Shown here in pieces: positions 7,211-61,515 of a stretch of DNA of 64,000 bases; positions within the stretch are counted from its first letter, which is position 1; the number at the start of each line of letters is the position of its first letter. The notes under the pieces were generated by a model. The model was given only the letters and a program-made list of their open reading frames with translations, was not told where the DNA came from and did not search any database. The stretch spans positions 1 through 64,000 of IMG/VR virus record IMGVR_UViG_3300045988_177154. The stretch is one strand, 5' to 3'. This DNA is from a virus. A program made the translations under genes and the position numbers.

Positions 7211-7720
7211 TTATGCAATTTCCTTATTCAAAATTTTAGTAATGAAGTGTTCCATAGTTGGCTTCAAATTGATTTCCACTCTGTTTAGGTAATCTTCATT
7301 TAAGAAACATTTATATTGGTCTAGTTCTTTAATATATTCATCAGTAAGAGCATAGAAATCATTATAAAGTTTGTTCAATGCTTTTTCTTTGTCATTTGCT
7401 TTTGAATTTAGAATTTTTTCATATTCATCTTTATATGTTACAGCAATTGTTGTAACTGTTCTTTGTACAATCTTTCCAGCTTTTTTCAATTTGTAATATT
7501 CATTTTTAGAAATTGGAGTAGTCTCAAATTTATATATAGGAAGTCTGTCGTATTTACCATTGTCACCCCAGCCCCATTCAGAGCCAATTTTAACTTTTTC
7601 TGTTAAAGTAAAATGTTCTTTCTTAACTTCTTTATAATCAATAGAATTAAAAAGCTTCTTTGAGAGCATATGAAGATTCATATAAAGCAAATCGTCAAGT
7701 TTCATTTCATTTAATTTCAT
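7211..7720 (-). CDS. hypothetical protein
   Basis: ORF track 7211..7744. Start moved to MKLNEMKL (7720), which has an AGAGG SD about 7 nt upstream. Confidence 0.7.
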   Translation of the reverse strand: MKLNEMKLDDLLYMNLHMLSKKLFNSIDYKEVKKEHFTLTEKVKIGSEWGWGDNGKYDRLPIYKFETTPISKNEYYKLKKAGKIVQRTVTTIAVTYKDEYEKILNSKANDKEKALNKLYNDFYALTDEYIKELDQYKCFLNEDYLNRVEINLKPTMEHFITKILNKEIA

Positions 7721-8489: not shown

Positions 8490-9416
8490 TTACAAGCCAT
8501 AAAGTTCTTTCTTGAACTTCGCATAATTTTCCCATTTTTTAGCCAATAAATCTTCATTATCTTTAAAGTATTCATATTGGAGAGCTTCGTTTAAATTATC
8601 ATAATCAAATCCACTTGATTTAGATTCATAGTAATACCCCCAGTTATCAACTCCAGCATCTTCCAAATAGCTTAATTTTTCTTCGGCTTTTAATGAGCTC
8701 CATTCTTTTTCGTCATTTTCTGCTAATTCAATAGCATAATCATAACCACCCCAGTTATCTACTCCACCATTACTCAAATTTCGATAAATGTCTGCTTTGG
8801 TCAAACCATCAACATAATCAGATTTAATAATGCTCATATACTCATAACAATCTTTAATGTTGTATTTATCAAGCAATTCTAATGTTTTCATAAAATCTGC
8901 TTCATGAGTAGGATAAGAGAAGAAATAAACAAAAATCTCTCCTGGTCGTTTAACAATTTTATGAAGGTAGTATTTTTTAGGATTAAATTCTTTAAAGGTA
9001 ATCTTAGTTTCATCAAATTCTGATTCTTTAATTAGATATGATTTAATTGTCTTTGAGCCAATAATGATGTTTACTGTTATTTTTTCATCTTTGACATCAG
9101 CTAGAGCTTTAGTAATAATAGTTTCCAAATGATTTTCTATTTCTGTTAAAGGAAAGCTCGGGAGTCGTTTTTGCAGTTCAATTACTCGGATTTTTACTGC
9201 ACCATTATGAATTTTATCAATATTGTTATTTAGGTAAAAAATCAAATCGAACCAGCTCGAATAGCCAAAGCGTTTAGCTAAATTCTCAGCAAATATTGTA
9301 ATTTCTTTCTTTTCTGATAATTCTTTTGCTTTTTGTTCAGACTCTTTAGCTTCTGAAAGAGTTTTGAAAATCTTTCCAGTAATTTCATCTTTATAAGCAG
9401 TAACTTCTTTAACCAT
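8490..9416 (-). CDS. hypothetical protein with duplicated GVDNWG(G)Y motif
   Basis: 308-aa ORF. GGVDNWGGYDYA and AGVDNWGYYYES lie about 40 aa apart. Confidence 0.75.
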   Translation of the reverse strand: MVKEVTAYKDEITGKIFKTLSEAKESEQKAKELSEKKEITIFAENLAKRFGYSSWFDLIFYLNNNIDKIHNGAVKIRVIELQKRLPSFPLTEIENHLETIITKALADVKDEKITVNIIIGSKTIKSYLIKESEFDETKITFKEFNPKKYYLHKIVKRPGEIFVYFFSYPTHEADFMKTLELLDKYNIKDCYEYMSIIKSDYVDGLTKADIYRNLSNGGVDNWGGYDYAIELAENDEKEWSSLKAEEKLSYLEDAGVDNWGYYYESKSSGFDYDNLNEALQYEYFKDNEDLLAKKWENYAKFKKELYGL

Positions 9417-9943: not shown

Positions 9944-10573
9944 ATGACTATATATAAAGTAGGAGAATTTGCAGAAAAAATTGGAGTTAGTATAAGTACT
10001 TTGCAAAGATGGGATAGAACTGATGTGTTAAAATCAAAGAGAACACCCACTAATCAAAGATATTACACTGACGAAGATTTGAATAAAGTTCTGAACTTAG
10101 AAGCTGAAACAAAAACTAAGCGAAAAAACGTTGGATATTGTAGAGTATCAACACAAGGGCAAAAACATAATTTAGAAAATCAAAAAGAATTTGTTTCAGT
10201 ATATAGTTTAAGTCACGGAGTAATATTAGATGAAATTTATACAGATATTGGAAGTGGCTTGAATTACAAAAGAAAAAATTGGAGTATATTATTAAAACTT
10301 GTTGAAAATAACGAAATAGATAAAATATATGTTACTTACAAAGATAGATTTGTTCGTTTTGGCTATGAATGGTTTGAAGAGTTTTGTGCTTCACATGGAA
10401 CTGAAATAATCGTTTTGAATCAAAAGCAAACAAGCCCCGAAGAAGAATTAACTGAAGATTTATTATCTATACTCCATGTTTTTAGTGAAAGAAATAATGA
10501 TTTGAAAAAATATAAAACAGAAATCAATAAGGAATTGAAAGAAATCAATGAGAAGAAAGAAGAAAGAGACTGA
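9944..10573 (+). CDS. tnpA: IS607-family serine recombinase TnpA (MerR-like HTH + resolvase catalytic domain)
   Basis: N-terminal YKVGEFAEKIGVSISTLQRWDR HTH. Catalytic-serine motif VGYCRVSTQGQ. Overlaps tnpB by 26 nt. Confidence 0.85.
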   Translation: MTIYKVGEFAEKIGVSISTLQRWDRTDVLKSKRTPTNQRYYTDEDLNKVLNLEAETKTKRKNVGYCRVSTQGQKHNLENQKEFVSVYSLSHGVILDEIYTDIGSGLNYKRKNWSILLKLVENNEIDKIYVTYKDRFVRFGYEWFEEFCASHGTEIIVLNQKQTSPEEELTEDLLSILHVFSERNNDLKKYKTEINKELKEINEKKEERD

Positions 10574-11807
10574 AAATCCAATTCCAACTATAACAAGAGC
10601 TCATAAAATTAGAATATATCCCAACAAACATAATCAAGAAGTTTTTCAAAAATATTATGACTATCAACGTTCAATATGGAATAGAGCAATAGATGAAAGA
10701 AATGCTCAATATAAAATCTATAAAGAAATGAAAGCTACTGGATTATATACTCAAAAAGAATTGAATAAGAATTATTTTCCACATACCAACAATTTAAGAA
10801 AAATGGAAAAATTTGATTGGGAAAATAATTTCCATTGTAGAGTAAGAGAGATTCAATTTGATAATTTATGCCAAGCTTGGGATAATTTCTTTAATCCAAA
10901 CATGCCTAATCACAAAAAGCCTAAATACAAGAAGAAAAAAGATGTTGAAACTCATAAGAAACTTGCTTTAAGAAGAGTGAGAACAAAAGGCAAATGGCTT
11001 TTCTTGCCAAAATCTCTAAAATCAAAACCTGAATATAGATTTACTAGAATCAAAATGGCGCAAGAATTAAGATTTGATGGACGAGTAGTAGATGATTTTT
11101 CTGTTTCTGTTGAAAATAATAAATGGTATGTAACTATAACTGTTGAAACACAACTTGAAGAAAAAATTGCAATATCTAATCATTCTACTGGTATTGATGT
11201 AAATGTTGGTTCTATTGACTACTTAAAGAAAGACGGTACAAATAAAGAATATGATAAATTTTATTTATTACCGAAATCATTGCTTAGACAATATGATAAA
11301 ATTAAATTTTATTCAAGAGTAATTTCTAAGAAACGGAATAAAAATCCTTATTATAAGTATAGTAAAAGTTATAAAGAAACGATAACCAAGCTTAATAATG
11401 CTTATACTAAAGCTTATAATATTCAAGAAGCAAATTTAAACAATATGGTTAAATATTTCTTTGATAATTACAATAGGATTGTTATTGAGGATTTAGATGT
11501 TAATTCTATGAAAATGAATAAAAGATTATGTAAATCATTACATAGAAATGCTTTTGGTCGTTTTAAACGAAAGATGGTTAACAAAGCTGAAGAATATAAT
11601 GTAGAGTTCATATTGGCAGATAGATATTTCCCAAGCACTCAAACTTGTTCAGAGTGTGGTCATATTAAGACTGGTGATGAAAAATTATTCCTATGGGGAG
11701 ATAAATATGGTAATGACCACAATACTTATGTTTGTTATAATTGTGGAACAATTCAAGATAGAACTGAAAATGCCATCTTAAATCTCGTTAATTATGGAAA
11801 ACGCTAA
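10548..11807 (+). CDS. tnpB: TnpB RNA-guided endonuclease (intact RuvC and zinc ribbon)
   Basis: RuvC-I GIDVNVG, RuvC-II IVIEDLDV, Zn ribbon CSECG...CYNCG, RuvC-III DRTENAILNL. Confidence 0.85.
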   Translation: MRRKKKETENPIPTITRAHKIRIYPNKHNQEVFQKYYDYQRSIWNRAIDERNAQYKIYKEMKATGLYTQKELNKNYFPHTNNLRKMEKFDWENNFHCRVREIQFDNLCQAWDNFFNPNMPNHKKPKYKKKKDVETHKKLALRRVRTKGKWLFLPKSLKSKPEYRFTRIKMAQELRFDGRVVDDFSVSVENNKWYVTITVETQLEEKIAISNHSTGIDVNVGSIDYLKKDGTNKEYDKFYLLPKSLLRQYDKIKFYSRVISKKRNKNPYYKYSKSYKETITKLNNAYTKAYNIQEANLNNMVKYFFDNYNRIVIEDLDVNSMKMNKRLCKSLHRNAFGRFKRKMVNKAEEYNVEFILADRYFPSTQTCSECGHIKTGDEKLFLWGDKYGNDHNTYVCYNCGTIQDRTENAILNLVNYGKR

Positions 11808-16307: not shown

Positions 16308-18893
16308 ATGAGCAACTTATCAAAATTTGAAGAGTATAGCTTAAAGAATGAGTTTCTAAGTAATTACTTCGAACCAATCAACAAAGAAGAAGCTACTCGT
16401 CAAATTTTTATTTTAGATAAAATACAAGATTTAGATGATGTTACTTGTATTTCATCTAAAAAGCCTGAAAAGAAAGCACAAGCTAAATCAACTCAATCTG
16501 TTCCTTTTTATGTTGCAGATAGAGACTTAAGAAATAAAGACATTTGGAAAATTACTGGTCGTTTCCTTAATGATTATAATGATAAACTTGATTTAACTAG
16601 ACTTAACATTAACAATATTAGAGTTTATTTTGCTCCAGGTACTGCTTCTAAAAATAAAGAATTAGATTATCTACATAGCTTAGTTTTAGATGTGGACCCA
16701 ACTAATATAGAAACAATTCAGAATTTAGAATTTGTAATGGAACGTTACTATAATTATTTACCTTTTAATATGGTTGTAAATTCAGGTAATGGACTTCATA
16801 TTTATTTTAACTTTGATAAACCTATTAAATTAACACAATTAACTAAATTCCATTTAAAAAATATTAAAGATGTAATTAGTTATATTTTCACTTATTTATT
16901 AGGATTAACTACTCATATTCCCGAAGAATACAAAAAGAAAGGGGCTGCTAATACAACACAAAGTATTATGCAAAAAATGAGTGTGCCTGGTTGTAGAACT
17001 AAATTCTATACACCTCAAAATAAAGCCGTTGTACAAGCTTTTAGAATAAAAAAAGACAAAGTCACTTATCAAGATTTTTTAATCTCAATTAGCAACTTTG
17101 TCGATTTATTCCGTGGCGATTTGCCAAGTGGGTTGTACAATAAGGTTAAAATGTTTATCGAAGATTCCTCAATTTTTGATGAGTTGATTGCAACACAAAA
17201 TCAATTATCTCATACAGATTTAATTTTGGAAGATTTCGATAAGTTATATCGTTTATCCTCAACCCCTCATAAACTTTTATCAAGTAGTAAAGCATCTATT
17301 TTGAAAAATGTTTCAGAAGTTAAAAGATTGCTACAACAACAAGATGAAAGAAGAAATGAGATTGTTAGAGGCTATAGAGCCAAGGCTCTTAAAGGTAGGG
17401 GCAAAATGCTCACAATTTTAGGATTTACTCGTAATATTGCAAGTAATCTTAAATCATTTAACAGACAATTAAATGAACCTTTAGAGAATAAAGAAGTAAA
17501 AGCAATTATTTCTGAAATTCGTAATCTAAAAGGTAATGTGGGATATAACCACCGTACATTTAAGAGAGACCATGGATTCTATTATATTAAACGTAATAAG
17601 TATATCAATAGCGCTCATAAAGCTGCTGAAGAAGCTTATTATGTTGAATGTGGATTGAATTATGGTCATGGCTACGGAACTTATGTGAATCCTACTAATT
17701 CTGTTGCAGCCGTTTATTCAGAAAATCAAGATTACTATTATGCTAATCAAGATGAATTGGCGAAAGAGCTTCGTTTGAGAGGTATTGTTGGAGAAAAACA
17801 ATATGCTGAAGCTAAAAAGAAAGTAACTAAATTCTTCTCATCTCAAGCTCATAATAACTATATGAATAATTTTAGACGCTTGAGAAGTGGTAATGATTTA
17901 ATGGAAAGACCTTTAAATTTCGTTAATTTATTTATCTCTGAAGTAACTTTAGATGAAACAAAACAAAAACGTAAACAAATAACTCATACAGAAAAAGCTA
18001 TTAAACAAATACAAAGATTAGAACAAGCAGTTAATATTATTACTACTTTAGAAAATGCTATTCATTGGAGTGTAACTAAAGAAAAACAACTTCAAAAAGT
18101 AGCTAAATTCTTCCAAAGATTCAGAGCTATTAACAATTCAGTTAAAACTGCTTTCTTATCTAATGAATTGGAAGTTTCTTTAGAAAAAGTAGTCCAAGAA
18201 GCATTTGCTCTTTATGATAGATATAATGTTGTTCTAATCCAAAGAAAAGCACTCGTTAAAAATGGTAGCTATACTGGGTCTGATGAATTTGCACAAAGCA
18301 TCTTGACTAATTTTAATAATTATAGAAAAGATAAAAGACAAGAGCAATTTATTAAAACAGTATCAAACTTAGCTGCTAATAAAGTATTTACAAATAGTAA
18401 ATACAGTAATTTTGAAATTAACTCTTTATTATATAGATTTAAGAGTAGACCAAGATTAGTCACTCTAACAAGTGATGATGTAGTTAATTCATACCTTGCA
18501 ATTCATAATTTAGAAGATAATAGTAAAAATCAAACTATTGCTAAAGTTAACCTAACCTATGAATTAAGCTCTATTATTAAAGATTTAAGATTTAATATTA
18601 GAGATGGTTATTATACTACTATTCAAAGATTAGACAAAGAAACAGCAAGATTAACAAATGAAACTTATGGTAAGAATACTATTGCTACTGCAACTGAAGT
18701 AGAATCATTTATTAGAAATGTTTTAAATCCTTTACTAAATGAATTAACAGATAATCTAATTTTTGAAATGGATTATACTGATTTCAGTACTATTCTACCA
18801 AGAAATAATTTTTATGTTGCTGAAAAGCTAAATAGAGTTATTGAAATGAATCTTAACAACAATTCAACAAGTACTACTTTATTAGCTGCTTAA
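16308..18893 (+). CDS. AEP-superfamily primase-polymerase-like replication protein (861 aa)
   Basis: Motif I LVLDVD and motif II VVNSGNGLHIYFNF lie in the N-terminal third. AAAGGAG SD. The long C-terminal region is unassigned. Confidence 0.6.
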   Translation: MSNLSKFEEYSLKNEFLSNYFEPINKEEATRQIFILDKIQDLDDVTCISSKKPEKKAQAKSTQSVPFYVADRDLRNKDIWKITGRFLNDYNDKLDLTRLNINNIRVYFAPGTASKNKELDYLHSLVLDVDPTNIETIQNLEFVMERYYNYLPFNMVVNSGNGLHIYFNFDKPIKLTQLTKFHLKNIKDVISYIFTYLLGLTTHIPEEYKKKGAANTTQSIMQKMSVPGCRTKFYTPQNKAVVQAFRIKKDKVTYQDFLISISNFVDLFRGDLPSGLYNKVKMFIEDSSIFDELIATQNQLSHTDLILEDFDKLYRLSSTPHKLLSSSKASILKNVSEVKRLLQQQDERRNEIVRGYRAKALKGRGKMLTILGFTRNIASNLKSFNRQLNEPLENKEVKAIISEIRNLKGNVGYNHRTFKRDHGFYYIKRNKYINSAHKAAEEAYYVECGLNYGHGYGTYVNPTNSVAAVYSENQDYYYANQDELAKELRLRGIVGEKQYAEAKKKVTKFFSSQAHNNYMNNFRRLRSGNDLMERPLNFVNLFISEVTLDETKQKRKQITHTEKAIKQIQRLEQAVNIITTLENAIHWSVTKEKQLQKVAKFFQRFRAINNSVKTAFLSNELEVSLEKVVQEAFALYDRYNVVLIQRKALVKNGSYTGSDEFAQSILTNFNNYRKDKRQEQFIKTVSNLAANKVFTNSKYSNFEINSLLYRFKSRPRLVTLTSDDVVNSYLAIHNLEDNSKNQTIAKVNLTYELSSIIKDLRFNIRDGYYTTIQRLDKETARLTNETYGKNTIATATEVESFIRNVLNPLLNELTDNLIFEMDYTDFSTILPRNNFYVAEKLNRVIEMNLNNNSTSTTLLAA

Positions 18894-24333: not shown

Positions 24334-25230
24334 ATGCTACAAATGAAAAAACTAGAAGAAAAGGAATGGAAGTATTGGATTCCCTCTGCTGGTAGAGCTG
24401 AAAATATAAAAACTGTTGATTATTTATTATCCATAGGAGTACCGAAAGAAAATATAAATATTATGGTACGAGATGATGAATATGAAGCTTATAATACTAA
24501 ATATAAAGGAATGGCTCATATTCTACCAGAGCAACAAACAAAAAACATTGGTATTATTAGAAATGGAATAGTTAAACTTTGTAATTTTGAAGATTATATT
24601 AACTGTATCTTAGATGATGATACAACTTCATTTTTGATTTGGAGTAATGACGGTACGAAATATGGAAATAGAGCTAAAGTAACCAATATTAAAGATTGGC
24701 AAAATAGATATATTGAAGTATTAAATACATTAGATTTGGATTTAGTTCCAGCAATAGGCCAAAGAGCAGGTGGAAATAATTTTCTATTCCAAAAATGCCT
24801 TACTGAAGAAATCACTTATTTTGGAAGTTTAAGCGGCTCATGCTTTGTTGTATTAGACCCAGATTTTCAATTTATCAATCATTCATTTTATGAAGATAAA
24901 TTAACTTGTTATGATTATTGGGTTAAAGGAAAGATAACACCAATCATTAACAATTTAGGTATGTTACGTTTGCCTGAAAGAACTGCAAAAGGTGGAATAG
25001 ATTATAAAGGCATAGCTAAAGAAATAGAAGAAGCTGTTGACTGGGGAGCAGAACAATTCCCATTTACAGAAAAGAGATTAACTAATGAGAAATACAGAGA
25101 TTACCAACCATGTGAGTTATATACTAACAAATTCCGAATTTTAAAATATTTAGCTTCTATTGGTATTGACCACAAATACATTCCAGAGGAATACAAAAAG
25201 AAAGCTAAGAGAAAAAGCTTATTTGAATAA
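24334..25230 (+). CDS. hypothetical protein, possibly GT-A-like nucleotide-sugar transferase (DxD-type ILDDDT)
   Basis: 298-aa ORF. The weak pattern WIPSAGRAE...ILDDDTTSF suggests a Rossmann-like glycosyltransferase. The start may be at MKKLEEKEW. Confidence 0.3.
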   Translation: MLQMKKLEEKEWKYWIPSAGRAENIKTVDYLLSIGVPKENINIMVRDDEYEAYNTKYKGMAHILPEQQTKNIGIIRNGIVKLCNFEDYINCILDDDTTSFLIWSNDGTKYGNRAKVTNIKDWQNRYIEVLNTLDLDLVPAIGQRAGGNNFLFQKCLTEEITYFGSLSGSCFVVLDPDFQFINHSFYEDKLTCYDYWVKGKITPIINNLGMLRLPERTAKGGIDYKGIAKEIEEAVDWGAEQFPFTEKRLTNEKYRDYQPCELYTNKFRILKYLASIGIDHKYIPEEYKKKAKRKSLFE

Positions 25231-27434: not shown

Positions 27435-27561
27435 AGTTATTTGTACCTTTCATTTTTCGTTAATAGTATTATATAACTTTTTAAATAATTTGTCAACAAT
27501 TTTTTAAAAAATTTAAGTAGCTATTTGATATATTTAAAGAGTAATTTAATAGAGGTGAAAA

Positions 27562-28365
27562 ATGGCTAAATATCATATAAAGAAAGACGGAACACCAGGT
27601 GTTTGCAGAGCTCAAAATGGTAAGTGCCCTTTTGGTGGCGAATCAGAGCATTTTCCAACTAAGGAAGAAGCACAAAATTATGCTGACAAAAGACATGAAG
27701 CAATAGAGCAAAGAAATAAATTGGCTGTACAATTCATTAGGAATAGAAGCTTAGAAATTGAGAGAGCACTTTATCCAACATACGAAAATATAGATAAAGT
27801 AAAAGACTTTGACTCAGATGTAAAAGTTCTAATGGATAATGGTCAAATATTGATTCAAAAAGCAATCAATGTAAATGTTTCCACAAACAAGCATGATAAA
27901 ATTTACAACAATACTAATATAAATATTAGAATAGACCCAGACAATCCAAGTAAGATGAATGTAAAAGTAGAAAGAGAAGATAGCACATGGAAAAATGCTG
28001 TATCAACTCCTCTTGGTGGGTTAAGACATATGACTGCTGAAGAAACAGAAATCTTACAAAAAGTGGAAAATAAAGTAAAGAACAAAGTTGCTAAAAATAA
28101 AGAACAAATTTTAGAAGCTTGTTTAGAGTCAGATAATTTTGTTTTCAATGATTTAGACCAATATAAAGGTAAATCTGTTTCAGATACTATTGATGGGTTA
28201 GACTCAGAAAGATACTATGTTATCAAAGATAAAGACAACAAAGAACTTGCAGAAGGTAGATTATCAGATGGTGATTTTAATAACTCATTATTATCAAAAC
28301 CTATTAACAATATAGAAGTTAAAGAACCAGGTAGTGAAGAAGAAATGATTTATTTGTATATTTAA
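27562..28365 (+). CDS. protein with N-terminal MAKYHI His/Cys mini-module (H-C-C-H) + unassigned C-terminal domain
   Basis: MAKYHIKKDGTPGVCRAQNGKCPFGGESEHFPTKEEAQNYAD aligns with the N-termini of the 40084 and 60239 ORFs. GAGGTG SD. Confidence 0.8.
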   Translation: MAKYHIKKDGTPGVCRAQNGKCPFGGESEHFPTKEEAQNYADKRHEAIEQRNKLAVQFIRNRSLEIERALYPTYENIDKVKDFDSDVKVLMDNGQILIQKAINVNVSTNKHDKIYNNTNINIRIDPDNPSKMNVKVEREDSTWKNAVSTPLGGLRHMTAEETEILQKVENKVKNKVAKNKEQILEACLESDNFVFNDLDQYKGKSVSDTIDGLDSERYYVIKDKDNKELAEGRLSDGDFNNSLLSKPINNIEVKEPGSEEEMIYLYI

Positions 28366-28400
28366 AAAAAGCACAACAGTAAAGTTGTGCTTTTCTTTTT
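28364..28400. terminator. bidirectional intrinsic terminator
   Basis: Hairpin GCACAAC-agtaaa-GTTGTGC (28371-28390) with flanking A- and T-runs. Confidence 0.8.
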
Positions 28401-29053: not shown

Positions 29054-29830
29054 TTATTTTTTATATTTGTAAGTCTTTTGTGACTTAACACCTTCTTTTC
29101 GCCTTACTCCAACTTCAATAATGAAATTCTTGTACTCACGAAGTACATTTTGACGAATAAGATTTTTATTTGGCAAAATAGCTTTAACAAGATTTAGAAT
29201 TTCTGTAACAGTAAATTCATACCCGAGCATTTGGAAGAAGTTTGGCTTCCATGAATCGTGACCTTGCATACGAGAAATTGCTTCTTGAATTAAGTCATAA
29301 TGGTCAAAAGCAAAATCTTCTTTAGCTAATAATTTGTCACCATCATAAAAAGCATTATCTTTTACATTAACTGTAATAAGTTTAACTTCAAGAGCATCAT
29401 CTTGAGCTTGCATCTCCAAAACTTGCTCATATGGAAGATAAACAATATAACCAATTGTAATAATCCAAGTTCGTGGGTCCCGACCGGGTGTCGATACAGT
29501 TTTTAATTGTTCAATCTGTTCTAAGTTAATAGTAATATTTGTTTCTTCTTTTACTTCACGTAGTACAGCTTGTTCAGCACTTTCATGAGAGCCAACGAAC
29601 CCACCAGGCAAAGCATATTTCAAACGATATGGGTGAGCTTTACGTTGAATCATAAGTAATTTAAGCTCATTATCAATGAATGTAAATGCTGTCATATCTG
29701 TTGTAACAGATGGTTGCTCATATGTAGGTAAATCTTGTTTTTTGTACCAGTCTAAAAATTCTGCTTCAGAAGCAACTTGTTCATAGTAAGTTTTTTCTTC
29801 TTGTTTTGAGTTAAATTTAATTTTTTTCAT
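29054..29830 (-). CDS. Nudix hydrolase with C-terminal winged-helix-like domain (NrtR-like ADP-ribose pyrophosphatase/regulator)
   Basis: Nudix box GGFVGSHESAEQAVLREVKEETNI is nearly complete. The C-terminal ~90 aa (FDHYDLIQEAISRM...FTVTEILNLVKAI...) resemble the NrtR DNA-binding domain. Last gene of the nadR-pnuC string. Confidence 0.65.
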   Translation of the reverse strand: MKKIKFNSKQEEKTYYEQVASEAEFLDWYKKQDLPTYEQPSVTTDMTAFTFIDNELKLLMIQRKAHPYRLKYALPGGFVGSHESAEQAVLREVKEETNITINLEQIEQLKTVSTPGRDPRTWIITIGYIVYLPYEQVLEMQAQDDALEVKLITVNVKDNAFYDGDKLLAKEDFAFDHYDLIQEAISRMQGHDSWKPNFFQMLGYEFTVTEILNLVKAILPNKNLIRQNVLREYKNFIIEVGVRRKEGVKSQKTYKYKK

Positions 29831-29883
29831 ATTCTAACTCCTTTCAATCTTATTATAAACTTATCTCAATAATAAGTCAATCT

Positions 29884-30645
29884 TTATTTAGTACTTTTAA
29901 CCCAGTTGTACCAACCAATAATACTGTTTAATAGATATACCCAGTACATTCCTTGAATATGAATGTTGGTTCCCCACCATAGATAAATTGAGAATACGTT
30001 AGTTAGTACCCATAATAGCCAAGATAAGTTAGCAAAACGTTGAGTTTGACCGATTTGAGCACCAACACTTAAGCCGTTTGTGATAGCATCTCTGAATGGA
30101 CGAGCTGAACCAATGCTTTGGAAAGCAAATCCCATACTTAACCAAGCAATAAATACAAACACGAAGTATTTCACATAATCCATAATTGACTCTTTACGAG
30201 CAACAAATTCAGAAGTTTCAGTATTTTTGATACGAGCAGTTAACCAAGCATAAATTCCAATTGGTTGCATAATTACATAGAATACTGCTATCATAACTTC
30301 TCCATAGAATAAGTTAGATAATGCTAAATAGAAATAAATGATGTTAGAGATTAAACCGAATAGATAATTACTAGCACGACCTTCTGCTACAAGGATAACA
30401 CATAATATACCAGTTAAACTTGATGTAAGACCTAAATAGTCATGCTCATTTCCACTTGTAAACTCCAAGATAATTGGAACAGAAGCAAGAATTAGTAAGT
30501 ATAGCCAGGCACCCAGACTTCGGTTATCAAAGAAATCATCAACGATTCCTTTTAACACTTTCTTAAATCCAAGTTCTTTTGCTTTGCCTGTAATGAGGCC
30601 AATATTTTGAGGGATAGCTGCAATGTTTGATTGTAAATTTTTCAT
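29884..30645 (-). CDS. pnuC: nicotinamide riboside transporter PnuC
   Basis: 253 aa with about 7 TM helices and Trp-rich helices (WLLWVLTNVFSIYLWW, WVYLLNSIIGWYNW) typical of PnuC. The start lies 2 nt after the nadR stop. Confidence 0.75.
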   Translation of the reverse strand: MKNLQSNIAAIPQNIGLITGKAKELGFKKVLKGIVDDFFDNRSLGAWLYLLILASVPIILEFTSGNEHDYLGLTSSLTGILCVILVAEGRASNYLFGLISNIIYFYLALSNLFYGEVMIAVFYVIMQPIGIYAWLTARIKNTETSEFVARKESIMDYVKYFVFVFIAWLSMGFAFQSIGSARPFRDAITNGLSVGAQIGQTQRFANLSWLLWVLTNVFSIYLWWGTNIHIQGMYWVYLLNSIIGWYNWVKSTK

Positions 30646-30647
30646 AG

Positions 30648-31703
30648 TTAGTACTCCTTATAAATGTTTTCAATTTCTTTAATAGCTTTATTGTAATTTC
30701 CTAGATAATCTTCATCTAGGAAGATAAGTTTTGTGTCTTTATGATTTTCTTTAGTAATTTGTAATAGATAATCTGTAAATGCTTGTCTGATTTGTTCATC
30801 AGCCATAGTCATGTCACGGAACCCATCATCAACATACTCACCTGTTGGTTGTACAAATAAGATTAAATCCCATTTTTCTTTAGTTACAAGTGATTTGTAA
30901 AGGTGTTCAACTGCCTTAATGTCTAAATCAGTATCAGATGAAGATTCATCTAAGTAATAGTCATAATAAGCTTTAGTTACGGTAGAATTTGTATCAGCAA
31001 TAACCAAACCTTTATTTTCTTTTGAGTCGATAGCTTTAGAAGTTTGAGCATATTGACCGTCTAACAAGTAGAAATAATCTTTAGCAGTAAGTTCATCATC
31101 TCTAACATTATTAGTTGTTTGGTATTCTCTTGCATATTCCAAACTTGTTGGAGCAGAGTAGAACAATCCTAAATCTTTAACAAGAGTAGTTTTTCCATTA
31201 GAAGCAGAGCCTAATACAAGAACTTTCTTAGTAAAGTGTCGTTTGAATGGTTGAGCAATAAATCTCCAATATTGGAAAGGATTTTCACGAATTAGACTAG
31301 CGCTAATTCCAAAGTTTCTTTCTTCTGATTGAGTTTTAAAGCCACGTTTTTGTAATTCTTCCACATATTCATCTTCATTAACAAAGAAGAGTAAATCATC
31401 ATCTTTATTAGTATTAGATACGTTGAAGAGTTCGTCTAGCCAAACGTCCCAACCTTCAGGCATAAGTGGCATATTAGCTTCATCTAATTTTGAGACTTCC
31501 ACAAGAGCATCATCATTAAATACTTCTCGGATATAGCGGAAACGTTTTTGAAGTGACAGTCCAATTTGGTCACCTCTATCACCTTCTCTGCCAGACACGA
31601 TAACTTTAACAGAATCGCAAATTCGTTTAGCTTTAATAATTAGGTCAATATGACCTCTGTGCATAGGAGCAAACGTTCCAAACACAATTCCTACTGTTTT
31701 CAT
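30648..31703 (-). CDS. nadR: bifunctional NMN adenylyltransferase / ribosylnicotinamide kinase (NadR type, no N-terminal HTH)
   Basis: GTFAPMHRGH nucleotidyltransferase motif at residues 9-18. Second-domain P-loop LVLGSASNGKTTLVKDL. 351 aa. Confidence 0.8.
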   Translation of the reverse strand: MKTVGIVFGTFAPMHRGHIDLIIKAKRICDSVKVIVSGREGDRGDQIGLSLQKRFRYIREVFNDDALVEVSKLDEANMPLMPEGWDVWLDELFNVSNTNKDDDLLFFVNEDEYVEELQKRGFKTQSEERNFGISASLIRENPFQYWRFIAQPFKRHFTKKVLVLGSASNGKTTLVKDLGLFYSAPTSLEYAREYQTTNNVRDDELTAKDYFYLLDGQYAQTSKAIDSKENKGLVIADTNSTVTKAYYDYYLDESSSDTDLDIKAVEHLYKSLVTKEKWDLILFVQPTGEYVDDGFRDMTMADEQIRQAFTDYLLQITKENHKDTKLIFLDEDYLGNYNKAIKEIENIYKEY

Positions 31704-40044: not shown

Positions 40045-40083
40045 GATTTACTTGTGATATACAAATTAAAAAGGAGTAAGTTA

Positions 40084-41316
40084 ATGGCTAAATATCATAT
40101 AACTCCAAGAGGCGAAGTTAAAAAATGTAATGCTAAAGTACATTGTCGCTATGGAGATTACAACCCTCACTTTGATGACCCAGTGACAGCTCAATTATTT
40201 GCTGATAATTGTTTTGATAGATTGAAATTTGACTCTACAATCAGAACTTTAGATACAAGTGGTTTTGATTTAAGAATGAAAAATAAAAATAGTTTACCAA
40301 GTAGAGTGAAAGATATAACTGGAGTAAAGCAAAGAGGTTTTGATTATGAATGTTACATGAGCTCTTGTTATGCTGAATCTCTAGGCCTTAGAAATGTTTT
40401 AGTGCAAGATAAAAATGGCTCATGGCATGCTATCAATCAAAACGGTGCTATTCCAGATATTGATGAAGAAAGAATAAAAAGCTTAATTGACAACGCTAAA
40501 CAAAGTTTAGAAAATGCTTATGATGTTGCTAATGAAACTAATTCAGAAAAATTCTGTCGTGCTATTTATTACAGTGACGATTCTGATTCATTATTCATTC
40601 AAACTGGAGCACCTGAGCTATTAGATGCAGCTGTTGTAGAAAATGGAGAAACTCAACTATTAGAAATCAAGAAAACTCACTCTAGTGGTGCTCAAACATT
40701 TGAAAGAACTTTAGGAATTGGCCACGATAGTTCTTTTGAATTAAGAGATGAAGATTACGATACTCTACACCCAGAAATCTTAGAACAAGTAGAGAAATTT
40801 AGAAATGATAATAGTACTAATCAATACAATCTAAAAGTTTCTAATTTTGTTGCTACTGAGCAATTCGTAAGAGATTATCAAAGAAGTGGAAGTTCTGAAT
40901 TTGTTTGTACAGATAAAAGGGGTAGAGCTATTTCAATAGATATGACTAGACCACCTGAAATTGTTGCTAAAGAATTAGTAAATAATGGATTTGTTACTAC
41001 TCTTAAAATCAGAACTAATCTAAATACTCGTAAATTAGACAGCAATGCTATATATAGATTAAGAGAAAATAAAGAAAACCTTTATACTGGTGACTATGTG
41101 AAAGCACCTGGTGGACATAGAGCTATTCCATTTGAAAACTTTGATAAATCTAAAATGACGAAAGTTAGAGGCAAAGTTAGAATTGGTGAATATATGTTGC
41201 CAGTTAAATGGGAAGATAAAGATAGCTTCACTGGCCCAATTACACTTGATAGAATGGAATATTTTGCTCCAGTTATGGGTGGCGATATTAAAAAAGTACG
41301 AGATGAAGAATACTAA
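40084..41316 (+). CDS. protein with N-terminal MAKYHI His/Cys mini-module + C-terminal domain with a possible PD-(D/E)xK-like motif
   Basis: Start moved to MAKYHITPRGEVKKCNAKVHCRYGDYNPHF (AAAGGAG SD). The D...E-x-K pattern in PELLDAAVVENGETQLLEIKK is only suggestive. Confidence 0.75.
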   Translation: MAKYHITPRGEVKKCNAKVHCRYGDYNPHFDDPVTAQLFADNCFDRLKFDSTIRTLDTSGFDLRMKNKNSLPSRVKDITGVKQRGFDYECYMSSCYAESLGLRNVLVQDKNGSWHAINQNGAIPDIDEERIKSLIDNAKQSLENAYDVANETNSEKFCRAIYYSDDSDSLFIQTGAPELLDAAVVENGETQLLEIKKTHSSGAQTFERTLGIGHDSSFELRDEDYDTLHPEILEQVEKFRNDNSTNQYNLKVSNFVATEQFVRDYQRSGSSEFVCTDKRGRAISIDMTRPPEIVAKELVNNGFVTTLKIRTNLNTRKLDSNAIYRLRENKENLYTGDYVKAPGGHRAIPFENFDKSKMTKVRGKVRIGEYMLPVKWEDKDSFTGPITLDRMEYFAPVMGGDIKKVRDEEY

Positions 41317-41346
41317 AAAAGATAGCATTGAGCTATCTTTTTTTAT
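41315..41346. terminator. bidirectional intrinsic terminator
   Basis: Hairpin AGATAGC-attga-GCTATCT with flanking A- and T-runs between convergent genes. Confidence 0.8.
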
Positions 41347-59261: not shown

Positions 59262-59630
59262 ATGGCAGAAATTGAAGTTATTAAAACTTATCGAGTAGGA
59301 AATGAATCGTTTGATACTCAAGAGGAAGCAGAACGCTACTTAGAAGAACAAAAGAAACTTGTTTTGCTAGAAAATCCAATCTATAAAGATAGTGAATTTC
59401 ATGCTACTTCTTATTATGAGCATTATGTTTATCAAGGTGGAGAGCATGAGCACCGTCATTGTGTGGGTAGATTTACTACATTAGCTGAAGCTGTAAACAA
59501 TATGAAAAATTTTCAAAATAGCATGGGTAAACCAGGCTCAGGATATATTGATTTTGTCAAAATCACAAAGCAAGAAAATACACAAGGATTAGTTAAGATT
59601 GAACGAATTACTATTTTATCCGTAGTTTAA
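59262..59630 (+). CDS. hypothetical protein
   Basis: 122-aa ORF with an AAAGGAG SD. Confidence 0.8.
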   Translation: MAEIEVIKTYRVGNESFDTQEEAERYLEEQKKLVLLENPIYKDSEFHATSYYEHYVYQGGEHEHRHCVGRFTTLAEAVNNMKNFQNSMGKPGSGYIDFVKITKQENTQGLVKIERITILSVV

Positions 59631-59662: not shown

Positions 59663-60205
59663 ATGCCTAAACAAGAAAAACAAGCTAAACAATTTGCTTA
59701 TAAAGCACATAAAGGAATGAAAAGAAAAGGAAAAGACACCCCCTTTACTTATCATTTAGAATTAGTAAATAAAATTTTAAAAACTTTAACAACAGATGAT
59801 GAAATATTAGCTGTTGGATGGCTTCATGATGTTATTGAAGATACTCCAATCACATTAGATGAACTTAAAAAAGAATTTAATTCTAAGATTTGTTATTATG
59901 TAGACTTAGAAACAGAAGATAAGTCTTTGCCTTGGAAAGATAGAAAATTAAAACAAATCGAAGAATTAAGGCGAAATAATTTTGAAGTTGCTCTTATTGC
60001 TTATGCAGACAAAATGGCTAACATGACTGAAATGTTTGATGATTACAAAATTATCAAAGATGAACTATGGCAACGCTTCAATCGTGGAAAAGAAAAACAA
60101 TATTGGTACTACTTAGAGTTTTATAAGATTTTTTGCTACAATGAATTGATTGATAAAGAACATTTAAAAGAATATGAAATGTTACTAGAAAAATTATTTA
60201 AGTAA
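59663..60205 (+). CDS. RelA/SpoT-type HD-domain small alarmone hydrolase-like protein
   Basis: QAKQFAYKAHKGMKRKGKDTPFTYHLELV...AVGWLHDVIEDT is the classic (p)ppGpp-hydrolase HD signature. 180 aa, single domain. Confidence 0.7.
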   Translation: MPKQEKQAKQFAYKAHKGMKRKGKDTPFTYHLELVNKILKTLTTDDEILAVGWLHDVIEDTPITLDELKKEFNSKICYYVDLETEDKSLPWKDRKLKQIEELRRNNFEVALIAYADKMANMTEMFDDYKIIKDELWQRFNRGKEKQYWYYLEFYKIFCYNELIDKEHLKEYEMLLEKLFK

Positions 60206-60238
60206 AAAGATATAACTCCTAAAAGGAGTAAATCCAAA

Positions 60239-61279
60239 ATGGGTAAGTATCATATAAATTTAAAGGGTGAAGTTGCTATTTGTAGAGCAATGGAGCATTG
60301 CCCTTTGGGGGGAGCACATTTTGAGCATCAAGCAGAAGCAATAGAATATGCTGATAGAATGAATGAAACTGTTATCAATAGTAATTTGCCTGAAGATTTA
60401 GCTAGAATGGAATATATTGAAGAAGATATTTTTAGGCATAAATTTATTCATGATGAAGATTATTCTATGCAAGAAGCTCTGAAAAGAGGTGAGTACGTTG
60501 AGAAAAGAGTAGAATATGCTAGAACAGTTGAAAAACTAGATTCTAAAAGCTTATACTATGATGAAACGATTGAAGATTATTCACCAGAAAGAAAAGCACT
60601 TCACAATAGATTGCTAAGAGAAGTCTTAGATAAATATAAAGATGTACCATGTGAAGCAAAAGTCTTTATGTCTGGTGGAATTTCAGGTGCTGGTAAAACT
60701 ACAATCCTATCAAAAATGGGAATAGATTTTCAAAACTATGCTACTGTTTCATCAGATGACTTCAAAGAATTACTTGCTAGAGAAGGTGCAATACCTCATG
60801 TAGAAGGCTTAACTCCTATGGAAGCATCAAGTCTTGTACATGAAGAATCTTCTCATTTGGCAGATAGATTATTACTCAACCTAGCTAACCAAAGAAAGAA
60901 TTTAATTTATGATTTTACTATGAAATCTGAATCAACTACTATGACTAGAATTGGAACGTTGAATAACTTCGGTTATCAAAATGAAGATATAAGGATAGTC
61001 TTTGTAGATGTTCCATTATCTGTTTCTAAAGGTAGAGCTAAAACAAGATACATGGTTGGATTAAATAACTTTGATTTAGGTGGAAGATGGGTGCCATCAT
61101 TTGTAGCAGATAAACAAAAAGCTAAGACTAATAGATTTAATACTGCTAATGCAGAAACATTAGTTACAATGGGAAGTAAATTAGAAGCAGACGGTTTCCC
61201 AACTCCAATTGTTTACGATAACACGGATGTTGCTAAGAAAATAGACTTTAATGAATTTAGAAAGGGATATAGAGAATGA
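60239..61279 (+). CDS. zeta-toxin/AAA_33-like P-loop kinase with N-terminal MGKYHI His/Cys mini-module
   Basis: MGKYHINLKGEVAICRAMEHCPLGGAHFEHQAEAIEYAD at the N-terminus. Walker A FMSGGISGAGKTTILS followed by VSSDDFKELL. Confidence 0.65.
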   Translation: MGKYHINLKGEVAICRAMEHCPLGGAHFEHQAEAIEYADRMNETVINSNLPEDLARMEYIEEDIFRHKFIHDEDYSMQEALKRGEYVEKRVEYARTVEKLDSKSLYYDETIEDYSPERKALHNRLLREVLDKYKDVPCEAKVFMSGGISGAGKTTILSKMGIDFQNYATVSSDDFKELLAREGAIPHVEGLTPMEASSLVHEESSHLADRLLLNLANQRKNLIYDFTMKSESTTMTRIGTLNNFGYQNEDIRIVFVDVPLSVSKGRAKTRYMVGLNNFDLGGRWVPSFVADKQKAKTNRFNTANAETLVTMGSKLEADGFPTPIVYDNTDVAKKIDFNEFRKGYRE

Positions 61280-61515
61280 ACTTAATTAAAATTGCTGAAA
61301 AATGGAAAAACAACTTATATAAAGATGATAAAGAATTAAAGGAAGATTTAGATAAAGTTAAAATCTTTACGCCTATTACTTCTGCAACCGTTGATGAAGA
61401 TTCTATCTCATTTGACGGAAGCGGTAATAGCTTCCTTGAAGTAGGGGAACTTGTTTTCAAAGATGATTCACAAAATTATCATGAATTTGTTAAATTAGTA
61501 AAGAAATTGAAATAA
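61276..61515 (+). CDS. small acidic protein translationally coupled to the zeta-like kinase
   Basis: ATGA start/stop overlap. 79 aa, rich in D/E. Confidence 0.7.
   Translation: MNLIKIAEKWKNNLYKDDKELKEDLDKVKIFTPITSATVDEDSISFDGSGNSFLEVGELVFKDDSQNYHEFVKLVKKLK

Follow-up and report, generated by a model that had tools for sequence, protein, structure and literature searches.

The 64,000-nucleotide stretch of viral DNA analysed here (positions 1 to 64,000 of the IMG/VR record IMGVR_UViG_3300045988_177154; hereafter the window) contains three open reading frames (ORFs) that begin with the same short His/Cys-containing module and are otherwise mutually unrelated. They are referred to by the first position of their start codons as ORF 27562, ORF 40084 and ORF 60239 (Table 1). 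A preliminary description, made from the letters alone, had pointed to this arrangement, and the present analysis confirms that the shared module is real and far beyond chance. In pairwise blastp comparisons the three modules match one another with E values of 3e-8 to 3e-12 and 40-46% identity, and M1, K3, Y4, H5, I6, G10, C15, A17, C22, G25, H30, F31, A37, A41 and D42 are invariant in the three-sequence alignment. The remaining parts of the proteins show no mutual similarity (best E 0.18-1.0), in agreement with the complete divergence initially described. Six-frame regular-expression and six-frame hidden Markov model (HMM) scans find exactly three copies in the window (HMM E 8e-29 to 1.5e-26; next-best match E 0.3).

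Table 1. Module copies, module-bearing genes and transcription-associated elements at the three loci of the window.
Feature	Position	Strand	Description
Module copy 1	27562..27699	+	46 aa: MAKYHIKKDGTPGVCRAQNGKCPFGGESEHFPTKEEAQNYADKRHE
Putative ligand codons of copy 1	H5 27574-27576, C15 27604-27606, C22 27625-27627, H30 27649-27651	+	assigned from the alignment
ORF 27562	27562..28365	+	267 aa: module and acidic body of ~220 aa, pI 5.0
Module copy 2	40084..40218	+	45 aa: MAKYHITPRGEVKKCNAKVHCRYGDYNPHFDDPVTAQLFADNCFD; putative ligands H5, C15, C21, H29
ORF 40084	40084..41316	+	410 aa: module and HhaI-like PD-(D/E)xK restriction-endonuclease-like body of ~360 aa
Module copy 3	60239..60367	+	43 aa: MGKYHINLKGEVAICRAMEHCPLGGAHFEHQAEAIEYADRMNE; putative ligands H5, C15, C21, H27
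ORF 60239	60239..61279	+	346 aa: module, linker and zeta-toxin/AAA_33 P-loop kinase domain (residues 142-293, Walker A GGISGAGKTT)
TGATATA, extended -10-like	27526..27532	+	35 nt upstream of ATG 27562; no -35 match
TGATATA, extended -10-like	40055..40061	+	28 nt upstream of ATG 40084
GATATA element	60209..60214	+	30 nt upstream of ATG 60239
Terminator-like hairpin	28367..28394	+	directly after the stop codon of ORF 27562
Bidirectional terminator-like hairpin	41315..41343		begins within the stop codon of ORF 40084
Perfect TTGACA-17-TATAAT	27496-27468	-	neighbours ORF 27562 and fires the opposite way
Near-perfect TTGACA-17-TATAAT (11/12)	39922-39894	-	promoter of the neighbour of ORF 40084

The module belongs to a large family. 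An exhaustive profile search that covered 1.84 billion cluster representatives recovered 3,612 protein clusters at E <= 1e-3 and 460 at E <= 1e-10, and the match starts at residues 1-7 in approximately 148 of 150 listed proteins. H5, C15, C22, H30 and A37 are invariant in 133 full-length relatives, with G10, A17, P23, G25, F31, Q38 and D42 conserved in at least 90% of them, and the same four His/Cys residues are likewise invariant in 41 diverse isolated modules. The His/Cys positions, which the preliminary description had made a condition of its proposal, are therefore conserved in a broader alignment. The knuckle-like spacing that it had attributed to them is not borne out: the candidate ligands are single residues spaced H-x9-C-x5/6-C-x5..10-H in 161 sequences, without a CxxC pair. 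A module length of about 45 residues, as first given, describes the window copies but not approximately half of the wider family, in which the conserved block runs on to about residue 54 as 'ADKxNE..[FYH]G[LIV][LI]P'; the extension 'NE..[FYH]G[LIV][LI]P' is absent from the three window copies. Past the extension, conservation collapses into a low-complexity linker rich in K, E, S and N that joins the module to the body. A family variant, 'CPYTTHIMAD', has HI in place of the usual HF.

Searches of Pfam-A 2025, NCBIfam 20.0, PHROGs v4 and PADLOC 2.0 give no match to the module in the three window proteins, and no curated family matches over the module in the 133 full-length relatives. Comparison of the 41 isolated modules with curated families produces no significant match even at E <= 10 (best E 0.02-0.1, one or two members each). 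A profile search finds no module among PDB sequences (best E 0.9), and literature searches returned no description of the motif or the family, the 'HCCH' of the CsfB paper being a nuclear magnetic resonance experiment. Whether the module is a known DNA-binding or leader domain had been raised at the outset; the Pfam, NCBIfam, PHROGs and PDB sequence and fold searches all answer in the negative. When homologues were sought by a word-indexed search with the module, nothing but 18 copies of these three proteins came back, all of them truncated or frameshifted (P0001-P0018). Database entries of 35-80 aa listed as 'proteins' are in many cases gene calls of this sort, made on noisy assemblies in which one of the three genes is cut short or out of frame; a short module match therefore needs a check at the contig level before it is labelled stand-alone.

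AlphaFold2 modelling of the ORF 27562 module from the 41-sequence alignment, a step proposed with the preliminary description, yields a confident model (pLDDT 84.6) of a beta-hairpin, a loop and a helix. Two strands are predicted (residues 3-6 and 12-15), then a loop with C22; residues 27-31 form a short turn and bridge, and the helix spans 34-48. In a Foldseek search of BFVD the sole significant matches are 11 proteins of one phage, Siphoviridae sp. ctHip2, with TM scores of 0.75-0.95 over the module. This is the phage to which BFVD assigns UniProt A0A8S5RW23, a protein that, like the ORF 27562 product, is 267 aa long and is 100% identical to it over the aligned module (48 columns). Because 11 independent BFVD models share the module fold, the prediction is reproducible, and the same models count the paralogues, of which this phage genome holds at least 11. 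Foldseek finds nothing in the PDB at E <= 0.001 (best match BPTI/Kunitz, E 1.3, TM 0.52), and the modelled fold is possibly a new one.

Because the four His/Cys residues are invariant, metal binding is the likely reason for their conservation. Most likely a single ion, probably zinc, holds the module together through H5 and C15 in the first and second strands, C22 of the loop and H30, which immediately precedes the helix; a structural zinc site would have four invariant His/Cys ligands and a tetrahedrally coordinated metal, and the putative ligands of the module are invariant. Since the four lie on four different elements, the putative site is neither a knuckle, a ribbon nor a treble clef: the ligands are single residues and the two CxxC-type CPxCG knuckles of the zinc knuckle or ribbon are missing, and, judged from secondary structure and ligand positions, the helix at 34-48 offers neither His nor Cys to a treble clef. 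The hairpin half of the module is basic (median pI 9.2) and the helix half acidic (pI 4.6), and the most conserved exposed residues, E35, E36, Q38, D42, N45 and E46, lie on the latter.

Two resemblances were considered and rejected. The motif 'F-T-x-EEA' gave a lead to the sheet-plus-helix DNA binders of the AP2/integrase-arm type, but no such entry is among the Foldseek PDB matches. DUF2188 (PF09954) arranges its elements similarly (hairpin, strand, helix) and shares an 'H/F-x-T-x-E-A' strand-to-helix motif with the module; one of the 41 modules matches PF09954 at E 0.03, and a DUF2188 model stands at rank 12 of the BFVD matches with E 0.6. However, DUF2188 lacks the Cys/His ligands, 'F-[ST]-x-E-E-A', the piece in common, caps strand-to-helix transitions generically and can be aligned to RRM helices as well, and hhalign against seven real DUF2188 proteins returns a probability of 11.9% over 18 columns.

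The three bodies in the window differ in kind. That of ORF 27562, described at first as an unassigned domain of about 220 aa, still has no Pfam, PHROG or PADLOC assignment; its single PADLOC match, to Cmr3, is marginal and not significant (E 0.0097), and four other proteins scanned against PADLOC gave no matches. The possible PD-(D/E)xK signature noted in ORF 40084 has been substantiated. The body carries GFDYE at residues 85-89, followed by P177-x3-D181 and E194-I-K196, and GFDYE (including E89), D181, E194 and K196 are invariant in 22 homologues of 25-92% identity. Eighteen homologues found by profile search at 25-30% identity all retain both module and body. The AlphaFold model of ORF 40084 (pLDDT 83.2, pTM 0.80) has HhaI (6uke_X) as its top Foldseek match in the PDB at E 1e-7, followed by weak matches to Hjc, MGME1, HincII and RecU. 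Catalytic motif and structural similarity together place the body in the PD-(D/E)xK nuclease superfamily. The likeness to R.HhaI (PDB 6UKE) has a probability of 1.0 over 296 aligned columns, but identity is 14% and global TM low (0.29/0.44), and the ORF 40084 body exceeds the enzyme by about 100 aa and is preceded by the module. No methyltransferase was noted next to ORF 40084, nor is there one among the top 25 of 30 families in a window-wide Pfam scan, in which the flanking ORFs were not individually assigned.

The body of ORF 60239 was rightly described as a zeta-toxin-like kinase. It matches the zeta toxin family PF06414 over the kinase domain at E 9.4e-17, with 61.5 bits against a gathering cut-off of 22.3, and its Walker A motif is evident in the sequence; PF13671 matches at E 1.2e-8. 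BFVD holds a module-bearing protein of 346 aa named 'Zeta toxin' from the same phage (A0A8S5RVE0), which by name and length we infer to be the ORF 60239 product. The kinase region also matches phrog_16619, annotated 'minor head protein' (E 1.6e-8), and a 1,088-aa protein of Phrappuccino, and a phmmer search of PDB sequences with ORF 60239 finds no zeta or PezT match at E <= 0.01. The gene order is not that of a zeta-epsilon toxin-antitoxin pair: the upstream gene (59663-60205 (+)) encodes an HD_4 hydrolase of the RelA/SpoT type rather than an epsilon/PezA-type protein. Downstream, the ATG of a 79-aa ORF (61276-61515 (+)) overlaps the kinase stop codon by 4 nt; this ORF has no match in PADLOC, the sole library against which it was scanned individually, and could encode a translationally coupled partner or an antidote.

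Across the family the variety of bodies is far greater. A listing of fusion partners had been suggested at the outset; the tails of 154 module proteins fall into approximately 94 BLAST groups, and a portable N-terminal domain on unrelated bodies is thereby borne out. The tails are mostly acidic (median pI 5.1) and without hydrophobic runs of 16 or more residues. Nameable partners besides the nuclease and the kinase include a complete CCA-adding tRNA nucleotidyltransferase (L038), with PolyA_pol (E 1.7e-19), RNA-binding and tRNA_NucTran2 domains, and the topoisomerase-I-type zinc ribbon Zn_ribbon_Top1 in two proteins (E 1.1e-15). One partner has a weak GNAT match. Six large orphan module proteins found no relative among PDB sequences by phmmer.

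Forms with little or no body also occur. Complete stand-alone module genes encode 54 and 61 aa (P0047 and P0155 verified), and three divergent proteins of about 150 aa consist of a module, a helical (coiled-coil) linker of about 50 aa and a second module, P0040 and P0062 being verified as complete genes. In several proteins a full module is followed by one or two further copies of its second half alone, 'PLGG..F.S.EEAQ..ADK..E..YG', which in some cases have neither His nor Cys. As judged from these architectures, the stand-alone, two-module and half-module forms would fit a binding activity of the module's own, possibly in multiple copies, better than a pure cargo tag, because as tags they would have no cargo. 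In a 122-aa ORF of the window (59262-59630 (+)), 'NESFDTQEEAERYLEEQ' is reminiscent of the half-module repeats of P0020, P0021 and P0045 and of the module's second half, with an HMM match that is not significant (E 0.3). A 322-aa module protein, encoded on the minus strand of another contig by an ORF starting at 7574 (L034; also L036 and L050), contains a further Cys/His stretch in its interior, 'ITWCTARTPGQRNCNYVLH', which looks like a second module in degenerate form.

The phylogenetic distribution of the module is narrow. The exact protein of ORF 27562 is found on two ENA metagenome contigs of 324,989 and 325,850 bp. Because of these contigs, the BFVD assignment of the ORF 27562 protein to Siphoviridae sp. 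ctHip2 and the lack of any megablast match between the window and GenBank phages, the source of the window is an uncultured jumbo phage of approximately 325 kb. Translated searches (tblastn) with the consensus module and a window module find no copy in 50,697 GenBank phage records, which we take to include Bacillus jumbo phage G, and none in 72,556 plasmids. Among 185,579 species-representative genomes, two back-translated peptide patterns, a scan that reaches only close relatives of the query alignment, match only three metagenome-assembled genomes (MAGs) from anaerobic digesters. One of these, 'Clostridiales bacterium AS08sgBPME_396' (L008-L014; GenBank DUQJ01; a GTDB species representative), has at least 13 module ORFs in seven loci, where the neighbouring genes encode ArdA, an Eco57I methylase, NADAR, NERD, a TET-associated glycosyltransferase (TAGT) and, seemingly interrupted by an intein, an FtsK-like ATPase. 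What was binned here looks like a huge phage or some other mobile element. The same MAG has a ZIP zinc transporter gene in a locus rich in modules, beside many putative zinc domains.

A degenerate DNA scan of IMG/VR located 34 stretches on about 25 viral contigs, which together hold 56 HMM-confirmed module ORFs with no false pattern matches. Nine of the contigs exceed 200 kb, the largest at 437,576 bp, and the others lie mostly between 100 and 200 kb. Module genes frequently stand two or three in a row as tandem arrays in these stretches. One contig (L030, IMGVR_UViG_3300006524_000155, 4,690 bp) is a perfect inverted duplication, in which each end has the same 772-aa module ORF pointing inward; as a probable assembly artefact it was left out of the partner analysis. 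Absence from GenBank phages and plasmids, near absence from genomes and presence on large IMG/VR contigs argue that, as far as these collections of sequences reach, the family is specific to a clade, or to related clades, of uncultured huge phages of low GC content.

A strong Shine-Dalgarno sequence precedes the ATG of all three module ORFs by 6-9 nt. For ORF 40084 a mechanical reading would begin at GTG 40054, but its AAGGAG ribosome-binding site and all orthologues favour ATG 40084. ORFs 27562 and 40084 are single-gene cassettes with their own terminators, antisense to their neighbours, and these neighbours have near-perfect sigma-70-type promoters that match TTGACA-17-TATAAT at 12 of 12 and 11 of 12 positions, respectively. 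The module genes themselves have a TGATAT[A/T] element without a -35 box 28-45 nt upstream of the ATG, both in the window and in paralogues from related genomes. Within the window this element precedes nine plus-strand genes, the three module genes and six others, versus one minus-strand gene. The window may accordingly have two promoter classes split by strand, the minus-strand class being drawn from the two genes that flank module cassettes, and the TGATATA element is read as a candidate extended -10-type promoter class rather than a module-specific regulon. The common regulation suggested at first thus receives weak support from the shared element and is weakened by the six other genes that have it. 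As a regulatory site specific to the module, GATATA was rejected for the same reason, the motif itself being real, and a second upstream motif shared by ORFs 27562 and 40084, 'TAGCTATT', occurs at chance level. Plus-strand TGATATA elements without a -35 box lie 28-43 nt upstream of starts that include that of an 861-aa orphan at 16308 (elements at, for example, 16271 and 61736). In the window as a whole GATATA is under-represented, with 50 occurrences against about 108 expected.

The window has a G+C content of 28.7% and contains a number of auxiliary phage genes: a Dda/PIF1 helicase, at most 28.5% identical to helicases of cultured phages among the matches listed, a NadR-PnuC-NUDIX cluster, a polynucleotide kinase, NrdI and YopX, as well as a gp5.9-like RecBCD inhibitor, a TAGT, an SLT transglycosylase and an IS607-like element. 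The NAD-salvage cluster (29054-31703 (-)) encodes a NUDIX hydrolase, a PnuC-type transporter of nicotinamide mononucleotide (NMN) and a NadR-like NMN adenylyltransferase/kinase (phrog_3462, E 1.9e-84), and may counter host defences that deplete NAD. The RecBCD-inhibitor domain resembles T7 gp5.9 and forms the C-terminal part of a 308-aa ORF at 8490-9416 (-) (phrog_6234, E 7.8e-13; PF25708, E 2.8e-13). In the IS607-like element (9944-11807 (+)) a MerR/serine-resolvase ORF (9944-10573) overlaps a TnpB/Cas12f-like ORF (10548-11807). A near-identical pair adjoins the ORF 27562 locus on L018, a different metagenome contig, so that the element seems to move about within the phage population. The ORF at 24334-25230 (+) matches the TAGT family (PF20691, E 3e-9), and a TAGT gene is also present in the digester MAG loci; because of these genes the phage DNA is probably hypermodified, which would fit an HhaI-like nuclease of ORF 40084 acting on unmodified host DNA. 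The co-occurrence of such a nuclease and a TAGT in one window suggests a T4-like strategy in which the phage modifies its own DNA and cuts that of the host.

The best explanation of these observations, held tentatively and as a whole given somewhat less than an even chance, is that the module is a mini-domain of about 46-55 aa that has escaped annotation, folds autonomously into the modelled beta-hairpin, loop and helix, and serves as a nucleic-acid adaptor. The adaptor logic follows from the many unrelated tail groups, the low-complexity linker, the numbers of paralogues in the ctHip2 genome and in the digester MAG, and the tandem arrays: a common head would lend many proteins one binding specificity. 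That the target is nucleic acid is possible rather than probable, and is favoured because the nameable partners are a nuclease, a CCA-adding enzyme, Zn_ribbon_Top1 proteins and a zeta/AAA_33 kinase, because the hairpin half is basic, and because of the stand-alone and bivalent forms and the zinc-ribbon precedent of phage G. The module would bind phage or host DNA or RNA through that basic half and so tether the HhaI-like nuclease, the P-loop kinase, the CCA-adding enzyme and the topoisomerase-type zinc-ribbon proteins to their substrate. Several points weigh against this proposal. About 90% of the partner domains are orphans, so that the nucleic-acid theme rests on a handful of cases, and one LysM/YneA-like and one YceG match do not fit a nucleic-acid tether. 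The acidic helix half, with the most conserved exposed residues, may suit a protein partner as well as a structural role, a strictly N-terminal position is more typical of trafficking domains, and no known DNA- or RNA-binding mini-domain is among the Foldseek PDB matches.

The family is outside every family tested. As a type, a small metal-stabilised adaptor with variable bodies and many copies in a large virus is not without precedent. The zinc ribbons of Bacillus jumbo phage G have expanded to about 35 copies, with a predicted role as transcription factors or as structural DNA binders (PMC7824862). The parallel is a small zinc-chelating domain present in many copies in a jumbo phage of a low-GC host; the difference is that the phage G domain is a zinc ribbon, whereas the present module has single ligands without a CxxC knuckle and stands as an N-terminal head on a wide range of bodies. 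The Bro-N and KilA-N modules, reportedly described by Iyer, Koonin and Aravind in 2002 as N-terminal DNA-binding modules of large DNA viruses and phages, resemble the present module in their conserved N-terminal position, variable C-terminal domains and multi-paralogue families within one viral genome. However, there is no relationship in sequence (Pfam) or fold (Foldseek), and the present module is much smaller, has a putative metal site and has enzymes as partners.

The common addressing function of the preliminary description is one of several readings, and its premise, a portable head, is supported. As a tag for the virion or another phage-built structure, the module would dock to a clade-specific receptor (a scaffold, a portal, the capsid interior or another compartment), so that a dozen or more cargo enzymes are packaged and co-injected or sorted; we consider this rather unlikely. 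One conserved head on so many unrelated and mostly acidic bodies, its strictly N-terminal position and the high number of paralogues per genome are what such a tag would show, and restriction to one clade of huge phages (no cultured phage, no plasmid and hardly any bacterial genome searched has the module) points to a partner specific to that clade. A zeta-type kinase and a nuclease are typical injected effectors, the kinase region matches a minor head protein family, a LysM partner would make sense on a virion, and the packaging of many ejection proteins is known from jumbo phages (PMC7411985 and PMC10052503). Against this stand the stand-alone and two-module proteins, which carry no cargo, the half-module repeats inside proteins, the location of the window module genes among metabolic and auxiliary rather than structural genes, and the CCA-adding enzyme, a housekeeping-type protein and an odd cargo. 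The capsid-targeting sequence of T4, said to have been described by Mullaney and Black in 1996 as an unstructured peptide of about 10 aa that is removed by the prohead protease, and the MuF-linked polyvalent proteins, in which, as in minor-head polyvalent proteins, zeta-toxin domains are said to occur (Iyer and colleagues, reportedly in 2017), are comparable in that an N-terminal element is common to unrelated cargo such as nucleases, kinases and toxins. The present module differs from the T4 sequence as a predicted folded domain of 46 aa with cargo-less versions and no conserved cleavage site: neither [LI]-x-E nor [SAG]-x-E is conserved after it, in position-by-position frequencies conservation ends with 'K-x-N-E-x-x-[FYH]-G-L-L-P', and the three window copies are unlike one another in this part. 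Pfam scans of the window proteins and their relatives reveal no MuF (SPP1 gp7-like) domain, and we know of no zinc-finger capsid-targeting domain, which also counts against a tag. A more specific version, in which the module is the zinc-dependent recognition handle of a phage cargo-sorting system that brings a dozen or more effectors per genome into the virion or another phage-built compartment through a clade-specific receptor, to be delivered to the next host, is more doubtful still; the stand-alone and two-module proteins would then be regulators or fillers.

Docking to a host hub (RNA polymerase, the ribosome, a Clp/Lon protease or a chaperone), by which phage enzymes are recruited or their turnover is timed, appears improbable. 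The conserved, exposed polar and acidic helix face E35-Q38-D42-N45/E46 and a 'G-L-L-P' extension reminiscent of a short linear motif would suit it, as would the portability of the module, and stand-alone copies could act as competitors or inhibitors. However, Foldseek PDB and PDB sequence profile searches give no similarity to known adaptors, and the family is present in both oral and digester phages, whose hosts probably differ, so that the hub would need to be very conserved. Lower still is the probability that the module has no targeting role, being instead a fold-nucleating or solubility cap, a zinc or redox sensor, or a 5' recombination 'handle' behind a ready-made promoter, ribosome-binding site and start. 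The self-contained cassettes of the window, with their TGATATA-type element, strong ribosome-binding site and terminator and often antisense to their neighbours, agree with this, as do the tandem arrays and the ZIP zinc transporter of the digester MAG. Selection at the protein level does not: the ligands and about 12 other residues are kept at 38-49% identity between window paralogues and across the 3,612 clusters, and because a recombination handle needs no such conservation it is disfavoured; nor is the TGATAT[A/T] motif exclusive to module genes.

Thus, one domain heads approximately 3% of the genes of a 325-kb phage and occurs in thousands of protein clusters, but is unnamed in the databases searched, which reveals a large annotation gap in the huge phages of human-associated and digester microbiomes. 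Compact as it is, the module is a candidate new zinc-binding fold, and its sequence can mark this phage clade. Were the cargo-sorting reading true, it would represent a new protein-targeting mechanism in viruses of bacteria. Because the head is constant and the bodies vary, the identity of its ligand would give context to about a hundred orphan families, and would tell whether the accessory enzymes of huge phages are tethered or addressed by one common system.

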